A stretch of DNA of 64,000 nucleotides from Ignavibacteriota bacterium (GTDB lineage: Bacteria; Bacteroidota; Ignavibacteria; UBA10030). The notes beneath the pieces are model-generated. The model was given only the letters and a program-made list of their open reading frames with translations, was not told the origin of the DNA and searched no databases. The stretch is from contig OY969585.1 of NCBI GenBank assembly GCA_963701295.1, positions 3,136,001 to 3,200,000 on the forward strand, read 5' to 3'. The translations under genes and the position numbers were made by a program. Positions 21,359 to 62,184 of the stretch are shown in pieces. Each line of letters opens with the position of its first letter. The first letter of the stretch is position 1.

Positions 21359-21372
21359 TTTCTTTTCTCACC

Positions 21373-21486
21373 GCCTAACGGATCGGCTCCCGATAAATCG
21401 GGACGCATCGGGAGTATAGTATTTACTTGTTGAGCTTGCGAAATCCCGCCTTGGCGGGGACTCTTTCCTTTTTAAAATGGTTAGGT
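21373..21486 (-). repeat. attC site replaced internally by an IS110 right-end remnant
   Basis: CGCATCGGGAGTATA.TATTTACTTG...ACTCTTTCCTTTTTAAA.TGG matches 28935-28981. Confidence 0.8.
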
Positions 21487-21496
21487 TGCAATTATT

Positions 21497-22720
21497 TCAC
21501 TTGAGCAAAACCAATTTTTTCGTCTGAGTGAATGAGCCAGCCTGCAAACGATAAAAATATACTCCACTTGGAAGATTGGCAGCATTAAATCTGATAGAAC
21601 ATGTGCCTGCCTGCTGACGTTCGTTGACCAACGTCTTTAATTCCTTTCCAAGTACATCGTAAACTTTCAACGTGATAAAATTAATTATTGGTAATTGATA
21701 ACGTATCACAGTCGTTGGATTAAAAGGATTCGGAAAATTTTGCTCGAGCGTGTACACTTGTGGTAATAATGATTTGTTATTATTAACGCCTGTAATCATA
21801 TCCGACAGTGGCCGTCGCCACGCGCCGGTGGCAGTGCCTGCGACAATAGTGTTGTTGCTTATGGCAAGTGCATATAGGTTTTTATCAGTCAAGCCGGAAT
21901 TGACGGCAACCCAATTACTCCCGCTGTTAGTCGAAAGAAAAACGCCGCCGCCATTAGTGCCTGCAAAAATATTACCGTCGATAACGGCGAAACCATAAAC
22001 ATAGTTGTTCAAGACGGCAGTCCAATTACTCCCGCTGTTAGTCGAACGATAAGCGTTGCCGTTCTGTGTACCTGCAAAAATAGTACTGTCGCTGATGGCA
22101 AGAGCATAAACATCATTGTTGATCAAGGCGGTGGCAGTCCAGCTCGTGCCGCTGTTAGTCGAAAGATAAACCCCGCCATATGTACCTGCAAAAATACTAC
22201 TTCCGTTGATGGCAAAAGCACCAACATCTTTGCTGGTCAGGCCGGAATCGATGGAAGTCCAGCTCGTACCACTGGTAGTCGAAAGAAAAACGCCACCGCC
22301 CCAAGTGCCTGCAAAAATATTACTGCCACTGACGGCAAGAGCATAAACATCGGTGTTGGTCAAACCTTTATTAACGGCAGTCCAGCTAGTACCACTGTTA
22401 GTCGAAATATAAACGCCGTCAGAAGTGCCTGCAAAAATATTACTGTCGATGACGGCAAGAGCACTAATATCAGTGTTGGCCAAGGTGGAATCGACGAGAG
22501 TCCAGCTCGTACCACTGTTAGTCGAAAGATAAACGCCGCCGGCATAAGTGCCTGCAAAAATATCACCGTTGATGACGGCAAAACTTCTAACACCGCCAGC
22601 ACTGCCGCTTATGCCACTGCATTGAACCCATTGGGCGTAGAGTGAATTCGCACTATTGAATAGGTAAAATGCCATAAATAGGAATCCGCCTCTGTGGATA
22701 TATCGTAAAATATCTTTCAT
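21497..22720 (-). CDS. T9SS-secreted beta-propeller repeat protein
   Basis: Repeated IFAGT..GV.LSTNSGTSW; QNFPNPFNP CTD; start taken at MKDILRY. Confidence 0.88.
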   Translation of the reverse strand: MKDILRYIHRGGFLFMAFYLFNSANSLYAQWVQCSGISGSAGGVRSFAVINGDIFAGTYAGGVYLSTNSGTSWTLVDSTLANTDISALAVIDSNIFAGTSDGVYISTNSGTSWTAVNKGLTNTDVYALAVSGSNIFAGTWGGGVFLSTTSGTSWTSIDSGLTSKDVGAFAINGSSIFAGTYGGVYLSTNSGTSWTATALINNDVYALAISDSTIFAGTQNGNAYRSTNSGSNWTAVLNNYVYGFAVIDGNIFAGTNGGGVFLSTNSGSNWVAVNSGLTDKNLYALAISNNTIVAGTATGAWRRPLSDMITGVNNNKSLLPQVYTLEQNFPNPFNPTTVIRYQLPIINFITLKVYDVLGKELKTLVNERQQAGTCSIRFNAANLPSGVYFYRLQAGSFTQTKKLVLLK

Positions 22721-22758
22721 GGGTCTCTCCTTTTGTGATATAGCCATGTGCAATTGCA

Positions 22759-22914
22759 ACCTAACGGACCGGCGCTAAGCTGCGGCGTTGAAAAGTTTCG
22801 TAATGCAACCAACGAAACAAGTTCATTCAATTAACTTTCAATTAAACACTAAACCTATGCGCGCCATGAATTTTGCAGTGAGCTCATTCCGTCAGCTTGA
22901 GCGCCTGGTTAGGG
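22759..22914 (-). repeat. attC site (156 bp)
   Basis: Consensus arms. Confidence 0.9.
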
Positions 22915-22962: not shown

Positions 22963-23295
22963 ATGAATTATGAAGACAAACCTCTTGTTTGGTTACACGG
23001 TGAAGTAAAAACTCCACCGTTCTCAAAAAATGCTCGCCTTGAAGCTGGCTTTTTATTGAGACAGCTACAAGCGGGAGAAAAGCTAAGTCTCCCCTTCTCA
23101 AGACCGATGCCAGCAATTGGAGCAAGATGCCATGAACTCCGAATTAACGATGAAAATAAAATATGGCGTATCATTTATCGAATTGATTCCGATGCAATAA
23201 TTATTTTAGAAATCTTTCAAAAACAGACACAACAAACACCAAAGAATATTATTGATATCTGTAAACGTCGCTTACGAATATACGACGAATTATAA
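22963..23295 (+). CDS. RelE/ParE-superfamily (HigB/Gp49-like) toxin
   Basis: SRPMP.IG..C.ELRI...WRIIY...F.K.TQ.TP. Confidence 0.88.
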   Translation: MNYEDKPLVWLHGEVKTPPFSKNARLEAGFLLRQLQAGEKLSLPFSRPMPAIGARCHELRINDENKIWRIIYRIDSDAIIILEIFQKQTQQTPKNIIDICKRRLRIYDEL

Positions 23296-23306
23296 GGACA
23301 ACAAAA

Positions 23307-23618
23307 ATGGATAAAGCAAAACAAAAACGTCTTGAATCCGCAGGATGGAAAGTTGGAACAGCAAGCAATTTCCTTAACCTTTCTTCTGAGGAATCTGCAT
23401 ATATCGAACTCAAACTTCAATTAGCAAAGAACCTGCAGAAACGACGTATTGAGAAAAAACTTACACAAATGGCAGTAGCCCGAATGCTTAAATCAAGCCA
23501 ATCGCGTGTAGCAAAAATGGAATCAGGTGATCCGACCGTTTCTATCGACCTACTCATCCGTTCTCTGTTAGCTCTCGGTGCTAAACCAAGAGCGTTATTA
23601 CGAACTATTGCTCAATAA
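23307..23618 (+). CDS. XRE-family HTH antitoxin
   Basis: LTQ..VA..L.SSQSRVAKME; follows the toxin. Confidence 0.88.
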   Translation: MDKAKQKRLESAGWKVGTASNFLNLSSEESAYIELKLQLAKNLQKRRIEKKLTQMAVARMLKSSQSRVAKMESGDPTVSIDLLIRSLLALGAKPRALLRTIAQ

Positions 23619-24643: not shown

Positions 24644-24679
24644 CTTATGTGATCCTTCTAATATTAATTGTTTTGCGCC

Positions 24680-24839
24680 ACCTAACGGATGGCGCATAAG
24701 CTGCGGCGTTGATAACTTTCAATATACTGAAAACGAACAAAGTTTATTCACATCACTATTGCGGAACATATCGGAAGAATATTATTTACTTGTCCGAAGG
24801 ACTCCTTCAGAGACTCTTTCCTTTTTAAAGTGGTTAGCC
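24680..24839 (-). repeat. attC site partly replaced by an IS110 right-end remnant
   Basis: TATTATTTACTTG...ACTCTTTCCTTTTTAAA.TGG|TTAG. Confidence 0.8.
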
Positions 24840-24853
24840 AGCATTTTGAATGC

Positions 24854-25914: not shown

Positions 25915-27372
25915 TCATTTGAGCAATATGAGTTTCTTCGTCTCGCTATATGAACCAGCTTGCAACCGATAAAAATAAATTCCACTCGACATATTTGCCG
26001 CAATCCATTGTTTCGTGTAACTTCCGGCTGACATTTCTTCTGAAACAATTGTCGCCACCTCTCTTCCTATCAAATCAAATACTCTTAGTGACACAAACGA
26101 TTTTGTTGGAATGCTAAATGAAATATTTGTAGAAGGATTAAAGGGATTCGGATAATTTTGCAGAAGGGAAAAAGTTTCCGGTGTAACAATGGCTACTCCC
26201 TCAACAGATGTTGGCATATTTGATTTAAGATATGGATAACCATTATTTATGCTTGAATCAATAGACCATACGGTTGTAAAATTCCAACCGTAACCGGTAA
26301 AAGTGGACTGTGATTTCATCTCAGTTGTGGTTTCACCAAATCCATCGACGCCGTTTGATTGGCCGGAGGATGTCACATCCCATAAACAGCTACCAGTGGT
26401 GGAAACGGTTTGATACCCAATCAAGCCGCCAACATGATTCGTACCCGTTGCAGAGCCACTGCTGTAGCAGTGTGTGGCGGTGGAAGAATATTTATTACCC
26501 AGAACATTATCATAATAGCCCCATTGCTCCCCAATCAAACCACCGACAAAAGAACCACCCGTTACAGAACCAATGCTGTAGCAATTCTCAATGGTGGCAG
26601 TACTTTGGTATCCAATCAAGCCACCGATATAAGAACCACCAGTTACAGAGCAACTGCTATAGCAGGTCTGGGCGTCGGCATCAATTTGATTCCCAATCAA
26701 GCCACCGATATAATAAACTCCACCAGTTACAGAACCAGTGCTGGAGCAGTTACTGACGGTGGATTCGAATTCCGACCCAATCAAGCCACCGATATAAGAA
26801 ACACCAGTTACAGAGCCACTGCTGGAGCAGTTACTGACGGTGGATTCGAATTCCGACCCAATCAAGCCACCGATATAAGAAACACCAGTTACAGAGCCAC
26901 TGCTGTGGCAGTTTATAAGAGTCCCACCCGACCCACCGTGATACCCAATTAAACCGCCGACAATATTGTTTCCAATTATCTTTACACTATCGAGCTTTAA
27001 ATTTTTGATTGTTGCCCACCATACCCTTCCAAAAAGACCAATGTAGTTCTTCGTGCTTCGGCTTATAAACAGACCGGTGATTTTATACCCCTGCCCATCG
27101 TATGAGCCATTGAAAAATTTCGTGCTATCTCCAATAGGAGAAAACCCTGCACCACCATCCCAAGAAGAACTTGTTGAGGCATCAATATCCGCTGTCTGAA
27201 TAAAATTCTTGTTCCATAAACTGCTGTCTTGTATAATCCAATAAAGGTTGTTTAATGTCGCAATTTGATAAGGATCGCCTGATGTACCGGATCCTGAAGG
27301 CTGGGTAGCCGTTTGGGAAAATAATGTGCTTGCAAAAAAAAGGAGAGCAAAAACTAATAATAAGTTTTTCAT
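25915..27372 (-). CDS. GLUG-motif T9SS-secreted protein
   Basis: G.GT..DPYQI, repeated GSVTG..YIGGLIG and QNYPNPFNP CTD. Confidence 0.88.
   Translation of the reverse strand: MKNLLLVFALLFFASTLFSQTATQPSGSGTSGDPYQIATLNNLYWIIQDSSLWNKNFIQTADIDASTSSSWDGGAGFSPIGDSTKFFNGSYDGQGYKITGLFISRSTKNYIGLFGRVWWATIKNLKLDSVKIIGNNIVGGLIGYHGGSGGTLINCHSSGSVTGVSYIGGLIGSEFESTVSNCSSSGSVTGVSYIGGLIGSEFESTVSNCSSTGSVTGGVYYIGGLIGNQIDADAQTCYSSCSVTGGSYIGGLIGYQSTATIENCYSIGSVTGGSFVGGLIGEQWGYYDNVLGNKYSSTATHCYSSGSATGTNHVGGLIGYQTVSTTGSCLWDVTSSGQSNGVDGFGETTTEMKSQSTFTGYGWNFTTVWSIDSSINNGYPYLKSNMPTSVEGVAIVTPETFSLLQNYPNPFNPSTNISFSIPTKSFVSLRVFDLIGREVATIVSEEMSAGSYTKQWIAANMSSGIYFYRLQAGSYSETKKLILLK
26740..26901. repeat. Exact 2 x 81-bp in-frame tandem duplication
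   Basis: 26740-26820 is identical to 26821-26901. Confidence 0.9.
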
Positions 27373-27410
27373 AAGTAATTTCCTTTCATTCTTTTGTTAA
27401 GAGCAATTGC

Positions 27411-27600
27411 ACCTAACGGGTGGGCACTAAGCTGCCGCACTGAATACTTTCAAGTTGCTGAAAACGAAACAAGTTTATGCTGATAACGAAATTAATTCCA
27501 CAAATGTTATGAAGTACAAAGAACTTAATAATAAAAACTGAAAACCACCATTCGCCATGCGTAAAGTACCAACGCTCATCCGGTCAGCTTGAGTGCCTGG
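27411..27600 (-). repeat. Long attC interrupted by an IS (its R'' resumes at 28981-28987)
   Basis: ...CAGCTTGAGTGCCTGG | IS | TTAGGC. Confidence 0.9.
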
Positions 27601-27681
27601 ATATTACCAAAAAGGAATCTCCCGATTATGTACATTGATAATTCTCTAGGTCACCAACATCCACAATCTAAGGAGATTCCC

Positions 27682-28683
27682 ATGTATTACTCAGGTATCG
27701 ATTTGCATTCTGATAATTGTTTTATCACCACTGTTGATGACACTGGTGCTGTCATCAAGCGACAACGTGTCGAGAATAACAATGAACGTGTTCTTGATTA
27801 CTTCCACTCTCTGCCCGGTCCTCATCACGCAGTCGTTGAGTCTACCACAGGATGGTACTGGCTCAACGATCTTCTCAGCGATCACGGCATCGAGCTTGTC
27901 CTTGCTCACGCCAAATATCTCAAAGCCATCAGTTATGCTAAAGTTAAAACAGATAAAGTCGATTCGCAAACTCTTGCTCTTCTCTTACGACAGGGACTCA
28001 TTCCACGGGCTCACAAAATCAGCCGAGAACTACGCGGCCTGCGCGATACCATGCGTATTCGTCTACGGCTCGTTCAGCAACGAACTGCCAGTCTTCTGCG
28101 TCTCTACAGTATTCAGACCAAATTTAACGGCTCTGTTCCGGATCCGTATCGTTTTCAACTTGCTGTCTTGCAACATACCAGAGACACTTTTACTGCTCAG
28201 ATCCTCTCGCTGGAAAAATCTCTCCATCCTGTGCTGATTCCCAACGACGATATTCAACGGCTCTTGCACATTCCAGGTATCGGCAAGCTCACCGCATTCA
28301 CGGTGTATCTTGAAATCGACGGCATTGAACGATTCGACTCCGATAAAAAGTTTGTCTCTTACTGCCGACTCGTCCCTGCTGCCGATAACTCCAATCGCTC
28401 TGTGCACCATCGCTCCAGCAAAGACGGCAATAAGTATCTCAAAATCGCCTTCTCCGATGCCGCTGTTCATGCTATTCAGTACTATCCGGAATACAAACGC
28501 TTATTCCAGAAATTAGCTCGTCGCTCCAATGAGGCGACTGCGCGAACCGTCGTTGCCAAAGAACTTGCGAAGATTGTTTACTATGTCTTAAAAAACAAAA
28601 CAATATATAAAGGTCTCAAAGGTCAGCCGATCAGCCGGCATAAATCTCAGCAGTGGCCGCGCCTCTCAAGCCCGCTTTCCTAA
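27682..28683 (+). CDS. IS110-family transposase/recombinase (DEDD RuvC-like)
   Basis: GIDLH, VVEST, KTDKVD, IPGIG and Y..LVP...S; AAGGAG RBS. Confidence 0.93.
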   Translation: MYYSGIDLHSDNCFITTVDDTGAVIKRQRVENNNERVLDYFHSLPGPHHAVVESTTGWYWLNDLLSDHGIELVLAHAKYLKAISYAKVKTDKVDSQTLALLLRQGLIPRAHKISRELRGLRDTMRIRLRLVQQRTASLLRLYSIQTKFNGSVPDPYRFQLAVLQHTRDTFTAQILSLEKSLHPVLIPNDDIQRLLHIPGIGKLTAFTVYLEIDGIERFDSDKKFVSYCRLVPAADNSNRSVHHRSSKDGNKYLKIAFSDAAVHAIQYYPEYKRLFQKLARRSNEATARTVVAKELAKIVYYVLKNKTIYKGLKGQPISRHKSQQWPRLSSPLS

Positions 28684-28699
28684 CTGATCCCGACTGCGT

Positions 28700-28900
28700 C
28701 GGGATCGTTCGCTGGATTGGGAAGAGAGTGCGCTGTGCCGTGGTAATATCTGGAACATCTCGCTCGACGAGATACGCTTTCACCATCGTTTCTTCAATGA
28801 GTGAATGTAAATCCGTAAACTGGTTTGGACGGCATTGCTCTGGTAATCGCCTGTCTATTCGATAGAGAACGCGGCATCGGCACGGATTCGGTCGTCCTTA
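28700..28900 (+). ncRNA. Putative bridge/seekRNA of the IS
   Basis: Hairpin-rich; contains matches to both IS ends and a 6-nt match to the attC target; boundaries approximate. Confidence 0.65.
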
Positions 28901-28981
28901 ATGTTAAAGAACTCTGCATTCCGATTGCGCGGAACGCATCGGGAGTATATTATTTACTTGACTCTTTCCTTTTTAAACTGG

Positions 28982-29401
28982 TTAGGCGGCATTAATACAT
29001 AAAGATTTTTTACGAATCATAATGATAACCAATTTCTGTCGCTGAATAATGCTACCAAATAAGTACGCGATAGAAGGAAGCAACAACAACTGAGAACTAT
29101 ACTGTATAAAAACGTTATCGATAAATTGCGCTCGGACTATCAAGAAACAAAATGTAAATGTGATAATCCCATGCCAAGCAATATTCTTTCGTGAACGTTC
29201 TATGACATTTTGAATTGTACCTTTTTGAGCCCACTTTTCTGTGCCCCTTTTTGTGACCCAATGCCGTAACATTCTAATATTTAATTTCTGCCAAAACTTC
29301 TGTTCAATTTCTGTAACCGGTAAACAGATTAAAGGAATAGATATAATTGACAATACTAGGCAAACAATTGATGGAATAAAAAGTATAAACTGAATCTTCA
29401 T
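28982..29401 (-). CDS. Hypothetical membrane protein
   Basis: Three hydrophobic segments; stop codon in R''. Confidence 0.6.
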   Translation of the reverse strand: MKIQFILFIPSIVCLVLSIISIPLICLPVTEIEQKFWQKLNIRMLRHWVTKRGTEKWAQKGTIQNVIERSRKNIAWHGIITFTFCFLIVRAQFIDNVFIQYSSQLLLLPSIAYLFGSIIQRQKLVIIMIRKKSLCINAA

Positions 29402-36225: not shown

Positions 36226-36334
36226 GGGAATAAATTTCTATCCCCAAAGAAGCCCTAAGAGATAGCATTTAAAATAAGTGCTTACGAAAGAAGAAAACGC
36301 AGAAATGAGAATATATCGATATGCGACCAACAAC

Positions 36335-36373
36335 TCCGAAGTCTGATGCTCTATCCAGTTGAGCTACGGGTAC
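36335..36373 (-). pseudogene. 5' half of tRNA-Arg(TCG), broken after the anticodon loop
   Basis: GTACCCG-TA-GCTC-AACTGGATA-GAGC-A-TCAGA-CTTCGGA; the expected TCTGA and T-arm are absent. Confidence 0.85.
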
Positions 36374-36859: not shown

Positions 36860-39214
36860 GTGGAGTGCGGGATGCGGAATAACCAAAATGAATCTCAGAT
36901 AATCGTTGTGAAACGATCATTGTGTGTTCGTAGCTTTGAAAAAGCAAACCGATTGATTGCTCGTTTCCGCCGCTCTCGGATTGCTTTGCTCTTTAGTGCT
37001 CTTGTGCTCATGGTACTCTGCTGTTTCCTGCTGATCGACGGATGCAGCAAAGACAGCGGTCCGACCGCTCCATCTACTACAGTAACGTTGCAGGGAAACC
37101 AGGCTTTTCATGCCGGAGCTGTCGCCGGGTATCAAGCAGTCGGTGCAGGCATATCATATCCTTTTACGGCGCTACAGCTTGCTAGTCCCACCGGCAGCAC
37201 GATTCGCAGTCTATCCGTTACGAATCTGTTCTCGAGTTCTAATGGCTTTAAAGCGCTCATGCGCACATCGAAGATTACAGACACACTCGCGTTTTTACCG
37301 CTTCTGAATCTTTATGGTGGTCATAGATTTAATGGGAATGTATTGACTTTATTTTTTTATAGCGATGCGGCAGGTACGCAGTCTGCGGGAAATGTTGCGG
37401 TAACGTTGCCTGCGAATACCACTAATCCACTGGATCCAACCAGCTATGCCTCCTACCCAGCTAACATCACAATCGCTATGAATATTACTGGGGGCAATCT
37501 GCCATGTACAGGAAACCTCGTGGTTAGTTTCACGGGTGGAACAGGTGCAAATACGATGACAGGAACAAATACACTGACCAAGGACAATGTTGTATTCGAT
37601 CTGAACCTTGCTCTTGATAACCAGATGAATGCAACTGGGTCGATTACTATTACAGAGAGCGGCGCTACAATAGAAGCAACAAATGTGAAAGGCGCAGTGT
37701 ACGCTTACCTCACCTGCGATGTGAAGATTAATCCTTATGGCTGGATTGGAACCGGCACACTCAACCTAATACAGGGTTCGATGACAGCAAATGTGTATAC
37801 AGGCACTGGAACATCCACTGCCACATCAGATAGTCTCGGCAGTCTGAACATTAACTATGCAGATGGCACTCATGAGATTGTGGTTAACGCGCTCTCAGGA
37901 GGCTTGACAAGTTCAATTACCTCGCCGGTCAGCATCACGGCAACTAGCGGTTCGTCGCAGAGTGCCACGATTAACACAGCTTTTTCCTCGCCTTTAGTTG
38001 CAACAGTTAAAGACCAGAGCAGCATTCCGGTAAGCGGAGCGACGGTTACTTTTACAGCACCGTCATCCGGACAGAGTTGTACTTTTACAGGTGGAGCCAC
38101 TGCGATTACCGCAACCACCAATGCACAGGGACAGGCACAAGTCACCGTTACCGCGAATGCCATAGCCGGGAACTACAATGTGACGGCATCAGTGGCTGGT
38201 GTTACAACGACAGCAACTTTCTCGTTGACGAACAACAGTCTAAATACTGGATATAATGCGCCACTTTTCTATAACAGCAGCCAGGGAACAATCGTAACTA
38301 TCAACAATAATGGTCAGTCCATCGGCTATCTATCATCAACTATGGGTTCTAGTTATACGGTACCGGTTTACTGGTCCACACCCACTTCTCAGCCGCAGAC
38401 CCTTCAAATCGCTACAGGTGACAGCTCAGCTGTTGCGAAGGGGCTTAACGACAACGGCCAGCTTGTTGGCTACTCTGCTGGTGGTACATATATCGTTAAT
38501 CCCGATTATTATACTGATACGAAACCTATTTATTGGTCAAGCCCAACGGCGAAGCCAGAATACCTGGCGGTGCCTAGTAAGTGGTATAATGCGTATGCAA
38601 TGAGCATCAACAATAGCGGGCAGATTGTTGGTTATGCATTGAACGGAACTGTCGTTATTCCCCTTTACTGGTCTAGCCCAACTGACACGCCTCAGGTGCT
38701 TGCGGGTACCTCAGTTAATGGACCGAGCTTCATCACTTCCAATGGTCAGATCTTAGGTGATTTTACTCCATATTACGTAAAGAGCGAAGTGGTCTGGACT
38801 AGCCCGACGGCTCAACCTATTGTGCTGAAAAGTCTTGCTGCAAGCGCTACTATATATCCCTACTCTATTAATACATCAGGCGTAATTGTGGGAGAAAACT
38901 TAGATACGAGCGGTCAAACTGCCGTGACCTGGGCAAATGCCAACGCATCCCCTCAGGCGCTGCCTCTACCACATGTGCCATCTATATTGGGTATCACCAA
39001 CGCTGCCAGCATCAATACCGCAGGTGTTATCGTTGGCTCATTCAGCAACGGCCAAGGCGGTGGAGATTGCATGATCTGGAAGAATGGGCAGGTACAGGAC
39101 CTTGCCGTCTTGATTAGCTATTCCCTTGGTCCAGCTACGTTAATCACAGATAAGGGTTGGATACTTGGTACAGCGTATTATGGATACAATCAATACATCC
39201 TTATTCCCAAGTGA
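36860..39214 (+). CDS. Surface lipoprotein with Big_1 (invasin-type Ig) domain and C-terminal HAF-like propeller repeats
   Basis: Lipobox-like IDGC; L.ATVKD...PV.G.TVTF and TNAQG.A; A..IN..GQIVG repeats; start uncertain. Confidence 0.75.
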   Translation: MECGMRNNQNESQIIVVKRSLCVRSFEKANRLIARFRRSRIALLFSALVLMVLCCFLLIDGCSKDSGPTAPSTTVTLQGNQAFHAGAVAGYQAVGAGISYPFTALQLASPTGSTIRSLSVTNLFSSSNGFKALMRTSKITDTLAFLPLLNLYGGHRFNGNVLTLFFYSDAAGTQSAGNVAVTLPANTTNPLDPTSYASYPANITIAMNITGGNLPCTGNLVVSFTGGTGANTMTGTNTLTKDNVVFDLNLALDNQMNATGSITITESGATIEATNVKGAVYAYLTCDVKINPYGWIGTGTLNLIQGSMTANVYTGTGTSTATSDSLGSLNINYADGTHEIVVNALSGGLTSSITSPVSITATSGSSQSATINTAFSSPLVATVKDQSSIPVSGATVTFTAPSSGQSCTFTGGATAITATTNAQGQAQVTVTANAIAGNYNVTASVAGVTTTATFSLTNNSLNTGYNAPLFYNSSQGTIVTINNNGQSIGYLSSTMGSSYTVPVYWSTPTSQPQTLQIATGDSSAVAKGLNDNGQLVGYSAGGTYIVNPDYYTDTKPIYWSSPTAKPEYLAVPSKWYNAYAMSINNSGQIVGYALNGTVVIPLYWSSPTDTPQVLAGTSVNGPSFITSNGQILGDFTPYYVKSEVVWTSPTAQPIVLKSLAASATIYPYSINTSGVIVGENLDTSGQTAVTWANANASPQALPLPHVPSILGITNAASINTAGVIVGSFSNGQGGGDCMIWKNGQVQDLAVLISYSLGPATLITDKGWILGTAYYGYNQYILIPK

Positions 39215-58971: not shown

Positions 58972-60576
58972 ATGAAAACAATTACATTCATCCTGCTTTT
59001 GGCAGTGTGTGCCCTGTCTGCGTATTCTCAAAACATAACCAATACGCTGGGTACGGGTGGGGCATTTATGATCAAAGGTGCATCAAATAGTTATTTGACC
59101 TTAAACCAGACAGACGGGCTTTTTTCTCTGAACAAGAACCTCTCCCTGCTGAATTCAACCGACTCAACAATCGGGTATATTCTAAAACAATGGAGAATTA
59201 GTGCGTATGTCCATTACGAAAGATATATACACAATTTTGCGCCCGTCGGAGCCTATGGTTATAATACATTTGTTGGACTTAATTCGGGAAATTTCACAAT
59301 GTCAGGTACCAGCTCCTCTTCAAGCTATAATACCGGAATTGGTTTTCAATCGCTTCAAAGCCTGACAACCGGCAGTGATAACACAGCAGTGGGGTATCAA
59401 TCTTTAATTTCCAACACGACTGGCATTGATAACACAGCAGTGGGATATCAATCTTTAATTTCCAACACGAACGGCAGTAATAACACAGCAGTGGGATATT
59501 CTTCTTTATGGTCCAGTCCGAGTGGCATGCAAAACACAGCATTGGGGGATGAATCTTTACTATCCAACACAACCGGCAGTAATAACACAGCAGTGGGGGA
59601 CAAATCTTTATCTGCTGACATTTGGACCGCGACCGGCAGTGATAATACAGCATTGGGGAGGAGATCTTCATATGACAATACGTCCGGTAGCTATAACACA
59701 GCAATGGGGGAGAATTCTTTATTTTATAATATGACCGGCTCTTATAACACAGCAGTAGGGGAGAATTCTTTACATTGCGTATCGGCCAACTCCGGTGCTT
59801 ATGGGAATTCATGCTCTTATAACACAGCAGTGGGAGATAATTCTTTATCTTCCAACTGGACAGGCTATTCTAACACAGCAATGGGGGATTATTCTTTATG
59901 TAACGATTCGATCGGTTATTATAACACAGCAGCTGGGGCTGGATCTTTATATTCCAACAAAACTGGCTATTCTAACACAGCAGTGGGGATGAATTCTTTA
60001 TATTCCACGAACAGCCCTGAGAATACAGCTTTGGGAAATTATGCCGGACTCAACGTAACCACAGGCATAAATAATACCCTCATTGGATATGATGCCCAAC
60101 CGATTGCAGGAGCCGTATCCAATACAATCACACTTGGCAATACCTCTGTTATGGTTCTTCGATGCAATGCTCCAATAATTTCTGCTTTATCGGATGCACG
60201 GGACAAGAGAAATATACAAGATCTCAGTTTAGGAATTGATTTTCTCATGAAATTAAAACCACGCCTGTTCAACTGGGATAGAAGAGAATGGTATAAGGAT
60301 AGTAAATCAAATGGGAGCAAGATGCAGAAAACACCGACTGCGGGATTCATTGCACAGGAGCTTGATGAAGCCCAGACAAAAGAGAATGCCGAATGGCTCA
60401 ATCTTGTGTTGAAAGATAATCCTGAAAAACTCGAAGCAACACCCGGCAATCTCCTGCCCGTGATGGTGAAAGCTCTTCGGGAGCTCAAAGCGGAAAATTA
60501 TAAGCTTAAAGATAAACTAGATAAGTATGAACAGATGCAAAATGTTTTAGTAAAAGAAATTGAACAACTACAATAA
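58972..60576 (+). CDS. Secreted fibre-like protein: 14-aa NTAVG repeats + S74 intramolecular chaperone
   Basis: Signal peptide; SDARDK.NI, GFIAQE and coiled coil. Confidence 0.85.
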   Translation: MKTITFILLLAVCALSAYSQNITNTLGTGGAFMIKGASNSYLTLNQTDGLFSLNKNLSLLNSTDSTIGYILKQWRISAYVHYERYIHNFAPVGAYGYNTFVGLNSGNFTMSGTSSSSSYNTGIGFQSLQSLTTGSDNTAVGYQSLISNTTGIDNTAVGYQSLISNTNGSNNTAVGYSSLWSSPSGMQNTALGDESLLSNTTGSNNTAVGDKSLSADIWTATGSDNTALGRRSSYDNTSGSYNTAMGENSLFYNMTGSYNTAVGENSLHCVSANSGAYGNSCSYNTAVGDNSLSSNWTGYSNTAMGDYSLCNDSIGYYNTAAGAGSLYSNKTGYSNTAVGMNSLYSTNSPENTALGNYAGLNVTTGINNTLIGYDAQPIAGAVSNTITLGNTSVMVLRCNAPIISALSDARDKRNIQDLSLGIDFLMKLKPRLFNWDRREWYKDSKSNGSKMQKTPTAGFIAQELDEAQTKENAEWLNLVLKDNPEKLEATPGNLLPVMVKALRELKAENYKLKDKLDKYEQMQNVLVKEIEQLQ

Positions 60577-60594
60577 TCAAAGGAGAGATAAAAA

Positions 60595-62184
60595 ATGAAA
60601 ACGATGACATTCTTTCTGGTTTTGGCAGTATGCGCCCTACCAGCATATTCGCAAAACATAACCAACACGCTTGGTACAGGTGGAGTATTTACTATCAAAG
60701 ATGCGTCAAATACTTACCTCACCTTAAGCCAGTCAAGCGGGCTTTTGACCTTGTACAAGAACCTCAACCTGGAGTATACAACAAGCTCGACAAGCGGGGT
60801 TATTACAAAAGGAGGGAATAGATTTATACATGATTATGCGCCTTCCGGAGTCGATGGTCAGAATACATTTGTTGGGATAAATTCAGGGAATTTCACAATG
60901 TTAGGTACTAGCATAATCTATTCAAGTCATAATAGCGGATTTGGTTATAATTCGCTTAAAAGCCTGACAACCGGCTATGATAACACAGCAGTGGGGTATT
61001 CATCTTTAACTTCCAACACGACTGGCAATTTAAATACAGCAGTGGGGGCTGGATCTTTATTACTAAACATGACGGGCAATTTTAACACAGCGGTGGGAGA
61101 TTATTCTTTATCTAGCAATTCGACCGGCAATGAGAACACAGCAATGGGACATTATTCTTTATCTTCCAATGTGACCGGCAACGATAACACAGCAGTGGGT
61201 TATCAATCTTTACCTTCCAACACGAACGGCTCTGATAACACAGCAGAGGGCTGTGAATCTTTATATTCCAACACGGCCGGTTCTTATAATACAGCAGATG
61301 GGTATGCATCTTTATATTCCAACACGACCGGCTCTAATAACACGGCAGTGGGGTATATATCTTTATATTACAGCACGACCGGTTATTCTAATACAGCAGT
61401 GGGGTATTCATCTTTATATAACAACACGACCGGCTATTCTAACACAGCAATAGGGGATTATTCTTTAACTACCAACACGGACGGCTATTATAATACAGCA
61501 GCAGGGGAAAATTCTTTACATTCCAACATGGACGGCTTTTCTAACACAGCAGTGGGGGAGAATTCTTTATATTCCACGACCGGCTCTGAGAACACAGCTT
61601 TGGGAAATGATGCAGGTAACAACGTAACCACAGGCACAAATAATACCTTAATTGGATATAATGCTCAGCCGATTGCGGGAGCCGTATCCAATACAATCAC
61701 GCTTGGCAATAGCTCTGTTACAGTTCTTCGATGCAATGCTCCAGCAATTTCTGCTTTATCGGATGCACGGGACAAGAGAAACATTCATGATCTAAGCTTA
61801 GGAATTGATTTTCTCATGAAATTAAAACCACGCTTGTTCAACTGGGATAAAAGAGAATGGTATAAGGATAATAAATCAGATGGAAGCAAGATGCAGAAAA
61901 CGCCGACTGCGGGATTCATTGCACAAGAGCTTGACGAAGTCCAGACAAAAGAGAATACCGAATGGCTCAATCTTGTCCTGAAAGATAATCCCGAGAAGCT
62001 TGAAGCAACACCCGGCAATCTCTTGCCTGTAGTAGTGAAAGCTATTCAGGATCTCAAATCGGAAAATGATGAGATCAAGGACAAAGTCGATAAGTTTGAA
62101 CGGATGCAAAATGTATTAGTAAGTGAGATTGAACAACTGAAATCGAAAGACGCAGAATTCAAACAGGTTCGGAATGGCAATTGA
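60595..62184 (+). CDS. Paralogous fibre-like protein with S74 chaperone
   Basis: Same architecture; near-identical C-terminal third. Confidence 0.85.
   Translation: MKTMTFFLVLAVCALPAYSQNITNTLGTGGVFTIKDASNTYLTLSQSSGLLTLYKNLNLEYTTSSTSGVITKGGNRFIHDYAPSGVDGQNTFVGINSGNFTMLGTSIIYSSHNSGFGYNSLKSLTTGYDNTAVGYSSLTSNTTGNLNTAVGAGSLLLNMTGNFNTAVGDYSLSSNSTGNENTAMGHYSLSSNVTGNDNTAVGYQSLPSNTNGSDNTAEGCESLYSNTAGSYNTADGYASLYSNTTGSNNTAVGYISLYYSTTGYSNTAVGYSSLYNNTTGYSNTAIGDYSLTTNTDGYYNTAAGENSLHSNMDGFSNTAVGENSLYSTTGSENTALGNDAGNNVTTGTNNTLIGYNAQPIAGAVSNTITLGNSSVTVLRCNAPAISALSDARDKRNIHDLSLGIDFLMKLKPRLFNWDKREWYKDNKSDGSKMQKTPTAGFIAQELDEVQTKENTEWLNLVLKDNPEKLEATPGNLLPVVVKAIQDLKSENDEIKDKVDKFERMQNVLVSEIEQLKSKDAEFKQVRNGN

Follow-up and report, generated by a model that had tools for sequence, protein, structure and literature searches.

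Among the elements of the IS110 superfamily, RNA-guided recombination, RNAs that lie downstream of the gene for the transposase in some branches, donor regions with several loops, and targeting of attC sites are all in print, as set out in parts of two reports (PMC11187229, PMC11208160). In IS621, the handshake arrangement of the bridge RNA drives strand exchange forward and disfavours excision, according to sections of PMC11208158 and PMC13626964. ISGsu4, ISGsu5, ISShfr7 and ISShwo5 make up one cluster in Supplementary Table 1 of PMC11208160, and in the source data of PMC11187229 ISGsu4 is labelled IS110 and ISShwo5 is labelled IS1111; a literature search found no paper treating these four as RNA-guided elements.

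In this work we analysed a 64,000-nt stretch of DNA from an Ignavibacteriota genome (the window), in which one such IS interrupts an integron cassette array. It is likely that this intact IS, every copy of which occupies the same position in attC, moves in circular form and that a predicted bridge RNA with two loops, encoded at the 3' end of its transcript, directs its insertion. The limits, the nine copies, the insertion point, and the four guide matches with their covariation are read from sequence, and the mechanistic steps are carried over from IS621. The class of mechanism is known and the element is not a new system; a literature search found no paper on this lineage, and an ISfinder entry or a supplementary table row for the clade may exist.

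The element, its array and its transposase

Positions 27601-28981 of the window contain an intact IS110-type IS of 1381 bp interrupting one attC of a cassette array (Table 1). The array is of the integron type, extends over approximately positions 1-36000, and has minus-strand genes and long attC sites. The initial annotation had placed the IS in an attC, opposite to the cassettes, and the interrupted attC among the minus-strand cassette genes confirms this; all the motifs that it named were found in place, as was the 333-aa ORF (27682-28683). The non-coding ends measure 81 nt on the left and 298 nt on the right, the long region being downstream of the gene. The sole IntI of the genome above the TIGR02249 cut-off, a full IntI at genome position 3566721, is 400 kb off at the end of another array, and none adjoins the array of the window. 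Genome-wide there are about ten separate attC clusters with 106 pattern-matched sites, and the IS family occupies 11/106 of these.

Table 1. Positions of the element and its parts in the window (sTIR, inverted repeats near the ends)
Feature	Position	Strand	Remarks
Interrupted attC remainder (L'', spacer, L', R', in cassette orientation)	27409..27600	-	Repeat family D3/D6; ~197 nt when empty; reconstructed site folds with R'/R'' paired
R'' remainder of attC (plus strand TTAGGC), severed from the rest of the site	28982..28987	-	
Left copy of GG core (suggested to be 2 nt; last G invariant)	27599..27600	+	
Left terminal 8 nt: donor half read by guide 28741-28750; gives -10-like GATATT in circle	27601..27608	+	
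Left sTIR, 9 bp perfect	27609..27617	+	sTIR 8-14 bp perfect in 83/95 events
IS110-family transposase, 333 aa	27682..28683	+	NF033542; D7, E53, D91, D94, S237
Predicted target-binding loop (loop 1) of bridge RNA; 5' stem overlaps last eight codons of transposase	28659..28733	+	
5' target guide CCTAAC(T): complement of core + attC right flank; TAA = transposase stop	28679..28685	+	
3' target guide CGCTGG + handshake AT (= first two bases of left end)	28710..28717	+	Covaries with left flank -6..-1
5' donor guide: reverse complement of core + left end	28741..28751	+	Covaries at +6
Donor loop inner multibranch part: two variable hairpins, 3-bp closing stem	28752..28814	+	Closing pairs covary
3' donor guide TAAACTGG + handshake TT (= first two bases of attC right flank)	28816..28825	+	
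Third hairpin region, variable, contains CGCCTG	28831..28883	+	No guide role found
-35 box TTGACT, predicted circle-junction promoter	28958..28963	+	
Right sTIR (28966-28974), terminal donor half, right core copy	28966..28981	+	

Several other features were recorded in the window. A second perfect 8-bp inverted repeat pair (27619-27626 and 28938-28945) is found inside the sTIRs at unequal distances from them, and its right member also belongs to a hairpin. Near the promoter-proximal end of the array, a 41-nt fragment (36330-36370) is 95% identical to the tRNA-Arg(TCG) of the genome; ARAGORN called no tRNA within the window, and the intact tRNA-Arg(TCG) gene adjoins an integrase fragment where another large array ends. 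Cassettes and neighbours at 25915-27372, 21497-22759 and 36860-39214, a set that includes the cassette downstream of the interrupted attC, code for repeat-rich proteins whose C-terminal tails resemble what we take to be a type IX secretion sorting signal. An antisense-oriented two-gene cassette (22963-23618) presumably resembles a RelE/HigB-type toxin with an HTH antitoxin, and two tandem ORFs at 58972-62184 are made of 51-nt repeats (17-aa units).

The transposase scored 169.8 bits against NF033542 (IS110-family RNA-guided transposase, cut-off 140), and in the alignment to IS621 and ISCro4 its residues D7, E53, D91, D94 and S237 align with the catalytic set of IS621. It is 20-25% identical to ISEc11, IS5075 and ISKpn2. 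In BLASTP analysis only 138 residues were aligned with ISUnCu1 (28% identity), and 331 residues with an ISGsu4-family protein (31% identity); among 3096 plasmid records no close relative was detected, the best reaching 34.5%. The phylogenetic tree was built from 25 proteins, six frameshifted or mis-started of the 31 rows having been left out. In this tree, which gave long-branch warnings, contains ISUnCu1 as its only IS1111-attC protein and lacks ISKpn4, ISPa21, ISPst6, IS621 and ISEc21, the clade of the element groups with ISGsu4-like proteins (98/97), apart from the IS1111 references (100/99). ISUnCu1 is taken here to be an IS1111-attC member, consistent with its insertion point. The name ISUnCu1 is from PMC10232235. 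With the same long-branch warnings, the AU test rejected a clade with ISUnCu1 (p = 1.7e-53) and one with all seven IS1111-type references (p = 0.0096).

Insertion site and copies in the genome

The closed 3.64-Mb genome carries nine identical copies of the IS and two sister copies (89% amino-acid identity). All of them (11/11) share one insertion base and one orientation in attC, i.e., at G↓TT of the R'' box (bottom-strand reading) and antisense to the cassettes; two of the nine identical copies share their flanks and probably represent one event. Empty attC sites have CGCCTGG before the insertion point in 49/95 cases and a sequence ending in GCTGG in 27/95. A CGCCTG guide would prefer the former sites, and the loop-1 guide the latter. 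Insertions were found in GCTGG sites in 8/9 cases versus these 27/95 empty sites (Fisher p = 0.0006, or 0.0016 with the duplicated event counted once), and in CGCCTGG sites in 0/9 cases versus 49/95. This subtype test within one genome is free of relatedness among homologues. The putative 3' target guide is adapted to attC sites of the GCTGG subtype and predicts the subtype preference within the genome. The copy in the window is the exception, as it sits in a TGCCTGG site with a one-base mismatch to its own CGCTGG guide.

After insertion, the seven bases replacing R'' were unpaired in 8/8 folded sites, and the original R'' was paired with R' in 7/8 (brackets read by eye). Because R'' is replaced by unpaired bases, these folding models make it likely that IntI use of an occupied attC is impaired.

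The two sister copies (genome 2408632-2410023 and 2396324-2397732) have Ser237 changed to Pro and a guide change that extends the reading frame past the stop by four codons. Their left junctions are identical and their right ends differ; one of the two looks chimeric, and the base at which their donor guide departs from that of the main element is also the one that differs in the right end of one sister. The sister copies are likely to be inactive, judging from the sequence, because Pro replaces the catalytic Ser and the Ser-Asn motif is kept in 120/120 close homologues. At least six right-end-only remnants of the IS family are also present (window 21370-21490 and 24677-24840; genome 1810046, 2382028, 2384981 and 3333607). 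Each stops at a TTAG/CTAG flank, four are joined directly to an attC R' arm, and in the window remnants the -35 box is interrupted by an additional small hairpin. No left-end-only remnants of the family were found in the genome.

Guide segments and predicted RNA structure in relatives

A homologue set of 177 loci, 42-91% identical and with named records mostly from Ignavibacteriota and Bacteroidota assemblies, was read with a motif parser for flanks, ends and the four guides. The parser resolved 111/177 loci in all eight fields, the other 66 being truncated, interrupted or too divergent; after two mis-parsed loci were dropped, 95 unique insertion events with 72 distinct guide sets were obtained. 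Invariant guide positions, the loop-1 handshake and the core G were partly fixed by the parser, and only variable positions are used as evidence.

In loop 1, the 3' arm matches the attC left flank above the shuffled level at positions -6 to -1, with 78/95 at -4 (41.0 shuffled), 62/95 at -5 (35.1) and 91/95 at -3 (74.1), and between +4 and +6 the 5' arm (CCTAAC) covaries with the right flank (77/95 at +4; 58.2 shuffled). In loop 2, the 3' arm matches the right end in 95/95 events at each of the variable positions -6, -4 and -2 (38.2 shuffled at -2) and in 83/95 at -3 (42.6), and the 5' arm matches the left end in 86/95 at +6 (45.9). The signal ends 6 nt from the core G in all four arms, and cross-loop controls are flat, save at the shared core position -1. 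Kinship inflates the shuffle p-values: the tree-aware analysis gave 2-9 independent pairs per position, none with p<0.05 (underpowered), and in the sum over seven positions about 21 independent pairs changed in the predicted direction, 0.3 in the opposite direction, and 16 showed no difference.

The two donor matches reported in the initial annotation are real. TGGTAATATC (28741-28750) corresponds to the left junction GATATTACCA (27600-27609) over 10 nt, for which we estimate ~0.0006 occurrences expected per 300 nt, and TAAACTGG (28816-28823) copies the right end (28974-28981) over 8 nt (~0.009 per 300 nt, also an estimate). The guide/target covariation across homologues that it had named as a check was run, and both donor matches covary with the ends over the 95 events; guide covariation thus supports its proposal that this recombinase of the IS110 superfamily is RNA-guided and programmed for the present attC sites. 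The target side came out differently. The initial annotation had found no clear second target guide and missed the target loop (28659-28733); both target guides are upstream of the donor loop and overlap the end of the transposase gene. Its own candidate, CGCCTG, was picked because the copy in the window sits in a TGCCTGG site. The motif is indeed present at 28848-28853, where ~0.15 would be expected by chance; as a target guide it was rejected, since only 1/72 guide sets have it in the 60 nt that follow the donor loop, 0/9 insertions are in the commonest, CGCCTGG attC, and the mean longest match of the region to its own attC flank is 3.15 versus 3.30 in shuffled pairings.

Two loci skipped by the parser, L009 and L011, were read by eye and have non-attC-like flanks with correspondingly changed guides. 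In both loci the loop-1 3' arm fits the left flank of the locus itself (6 and 8 nt), and the loop-2 3' arm fits its right end. The right flank of L009 begins with TC, the 5' target guide is altered to match it, and TC replaces TT as the dinucleotide that follows the donor guide; in L011 the 5' guide matches the single observed right flank with mismatches, and the handshake TT is changed to CC. Separately, a 30%-identical IS110 element on an Alteromonas plasmid (L181, ~390-2000) has a TTAGG right flank, TCTAAC just past the stop codon, and a GGTTTG-AT segment resembling its own left junction; its flank, by eye, shows no clear attC. In the left flanks of L023, L031, L033, L036, L055, L106 and L117, a different IS end is found 8-20 bp away in the same attC, which suggests stacked insertions by a second attC-targeting family.

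When read on the minus strand, target and donor each consist of a left half, a 2-nt core and a right half, as in IS621, and the two bases past each right guide match positions 6-7 of the other DNA, which gives the AT and TT handshakes of the window (Table 1). The loop-2 handshake is TT in 88/95 events, with no parser constraint. A G is present at both junctions in 95/95 events, in part through the parser; T precedes this invariant G at the right junction in 22/95, and in 21 of those 22 the target flank also has T. Because the T before the G tracks the T of the target flank, the alignments suggest a 2-nt core of GG (CC on the other strand), not CT, with position -1 behaving as a shared or exchanged base. 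The sTIRs are set 8 and 7 nt from the junctions (core included), with 15 nt between them; these offsets are built into the parser, yet the repeats pair there.

TTGACT (28958-28963), with 17 nt to GATATT in the joined form, is present as described in the initial annotation, and TTGACT with a 17-nt spacing to the junction hexamer was found in 89/95 events, so that the sequence supports a putative junction promoter. No end-to-end circle joint was found in the assembled contigs of four runs (X1, X15, X16, X17; contigs only), and a search with the circle-junction pattern returned 0 viral contigs. Metatranscriptome contigs of relatives extend over the region, as assembled sequence only. A junction-spanning leader frame into the transposase was rejected as a clade feature: starting from the TTG of the -35 box, only 8/72 guide sets keep it open, and in 44/72 the length of the left end is not divisible by 3.

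The RNA alignment covered 55 of the 72 guide sets. Over all stems, 98.9% of the cells are paired, with 167 both-side changes versus 51.9 in shuffled alignments, and 0/500 shuffles reach 167; slid-stem controls are 26-44% paired, a comparison tilted towards the structure, as it was derived from the same alignment. The outer stem of loop 1 has both-side changes at 6/9 pairs (0/500 shuffles) and overlaps the transposase codons for W-P-R and beyond; the TAA of the guide is the in-frame stop codon in 70/72 guide sets. Loop 2 combines invariant CCC/GGG closing pairs with a covarying inner stem, and its interior ranges from two hairpins to ~10 nt (~10 nt in L056, L080 and L097). Taken singly, the sequence folds with a modest z-score of -2.24. 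The GCC at 28737-28739 may pair with a 5' GGC (RNAalifold) or close the donor loop with a 3' GG, all of these bases being invariant. The GTGCCG/CGGCAC stem (28735-28740 and 28878-28883) that the initial annotation had drawn around the guide segments is seen in the MFE fold; as a conserved frame it does not hold, a perfect partner being present in only 22/72 guide sets. The predicted product is a structured RNA in which both loops, target and donor, have matches to the two strands.

Proposed mechanism, alternatives and comparison with described systems

Circle formation, transcription, RNA binding and strand exchange are modelled here on IS621 and ISEc11. Rare excision would join the ends and create the promoter TTGACT-17-GATATT, as in IS621, and the junction transcript would carry the transposase and then the bridge RNA. 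Loop 1 would pair with both attC strands, 6 nt on one side and 5 on the other, around the 2-nt GG core, and loop 2 with the two strands of the junction in the circle; strand exchange would then be carried out by a tetramer with DEDD and Ser237. The AT and TT handshake bases would pair only after exchange, so that insertion may be favoured over excision. Insertion would unpair the R box, and the neighbouring cassettes could be locked or fused.

The features that tie this family to attC could also mean that a folded attC hairpin (single strand or cruciform) is recognised in place of the plain duplex, the guides being real and attC structure a second requirement. An attC-like L'' box and TTA flank are present in 75/95 events, the opposite attC arm is found in 51/77 events with enough flank versus 10/77 in the coding control, and the insertion site is the G↓TT triplet that pairs within the attC hairpin. 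We nevertheless consider this reading unlikely: the close relatives L009 and L011 combine non-attC-like targets with an unchanged RNA frame, the insertions of L023, L036, L055 and L106 are in attC fragments directly beside the end of another element (either order possible), and the genome has only 13 occurrences of the 10-mer that fits the guide, so that sequence alone can give specificity. Still less plausible, and indeed very improbable, is that the matches arose as side effects of common descent or local duplication and that the protein alone selects attC. Guides and ends do share one element and one history, and the independent-pair tests stay below significance; the target flanks, however, are host DNA and still covary with loop 1, the guide predicts, within one genome, the attC subtype that receives the insertions, and RNA dependence was found in all tested superfamily relatives described in the cited parts of PMC11187229 and PMC11208160. 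We give this reading almost no weight.

The link to the IS1111-attC subgroup made in the initial annotation would make the element an ordinary member of that group, with a target-only seekRNA, CGCCTG as one target match, and ends recognised by the protein through the sTIRs. The downstream non-coding region, the sTIRs, the antisense insertion near the attC 5' end and the top-strand-first guides are all IS1111 traits (parts of PMC11187229 and PMC3001079). Against them, the insertion point is 7 bp from that of ISKpn4, ISPst6 and ISPa25 (PMC13604230, in part) and of ISUnCu1, the sTIRs are separated by 15 nt versus 10 in the IS1111-attC type, the BLASTP and AU results place the protein elsewhere, CGCCTG is unconserved, and the donor guides covary with the ends. 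Ordinary membership is thus highly unlikely, and the link was given up in favour of a separate lineage with a different insertion point.

Under the bridge-RNA reading, attC targeting was likely gained independently of the IS1111-attC group, in an Ignavibacteriota/Bacteroidota lineage, because the proteins show only distant kinship to the described integron-targeting elements. We propose further, at roughly even odds, that the ISGsu4-related branch has a third IS110 architecture, with a downstream handshake bridge RNA, IS1111 order and a stop codon that is also a target-guide triplet, and with an independent Ignavibacteriota attC targeting at G↓TT whose guide was repeatedly retuned to attC subtypes. 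If this is true, the commonest attC subtype of a genome can escape, and the family documents how the guide of a bridge element and its targets in chromosomal integrons have coevolved in nature. As a separate origin of attC targeting, at a base of its own, and with 11/106 sites of this genome occupied, the element may influence how mobile the cassettes of Ignavibacteriota integrons are. The element would also offer a readable donor loop and handshake pair in an IS1111-like layout, for which target matches (seekRNA) or predicted donor pairing only have been published, and the question of seekRNA versus bridge RNA becomes testable on one element. For tool builders it would provide a 333-aa enzyme, a core other than CT, numerous naturally occurring guide variants, and short natural RNAs of ~130 nt for both loops (L056, L080, L097).

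In common with IS621 and ISCro4 (IS622) (parts of PMC11208160, PMC11208158, PMC13626964 and bioRxiv 10.1101/2025.05.14.653916), the element has a DEDD + Ser enzyme, a predicted target loop followed by a donor loop, two guides per loop for opposite strands, and handshake dinucleotides 3' of the right guides that match the exchanged strand only; a 2-nt core and a junction promoter would be further common points. Unlike in IS621 and ISCro4, the predicted RNA is downstream of the gene and overlaps the stop codon, the orientation in which target and donor are read is reversed, the suggested core is GG and not CT, the sTIRs are long, and the donor loop has a multibranch insert; the protein is only distantly similar to the two (E 6.5e-8 and 1.2e-5). 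The narrow IS110 group (IS621, ISEc21) has a long upstream non-coding region, the bottom-strand guide first and no long sTIR, none of which applies to the element.

Like the IS1111 family, the element has its 298-nt non-coding region downstream, and in both loops the top-strand match lies 5' of the bottom-strand one (PMC11187229, in part). The IS1111 sTIRs are 11-13 bp at 7 and 3 bp from the ends, in contrast to 9 bp at 8 and 7 nt here, and the IS1111 clade has a P----S/T-G motif where the element, outside that clade, has Ser-Asn. With ISKpn4, ISPst6, ISPa21, ISPa25 and ISUnCu1 of the IS1111-attC group it shares the attC target, the antisense orientation, the R''-proximal end, the downstream non-coding region, sTIRs and the top-strand guide first (parts of PMC11187229 and PMC3001079). 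ISKpn4, ISPst6 and ISPa25 insert beside L'' (PMC13604230, in part), and ISUnCu1 of plasmid pIEC33019, with sTIRs set 7 and 3 bp from its ends, does the same; the present element inserts 7 bp away, in R''. Unlike that group it has a clear donor loop and a separate protein clade (ISUnCu1 being the sole member compared in the tree). With the ISGsu4 cluster it shares the sister-group position in the tree and the GIDLH start, and L180, an ISGsu4-family locus, also has a long downstream region; identity to the family is only 31%, and the comparison covers the protein and the downstream region of L180. The group IIC-attC introns, a third kind of mobile element, are likewise parasites of the attC 5' end, antisense to cassettes, and are retroelements with a ribozyme, without bridge RNA or DEDD recombinase (parts of PMC3001079). 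Taken together, the sequence features indicate an element that likely works like IS621 and is laid out like IS1111, outside both narrow groups and outside IS1111-attC.
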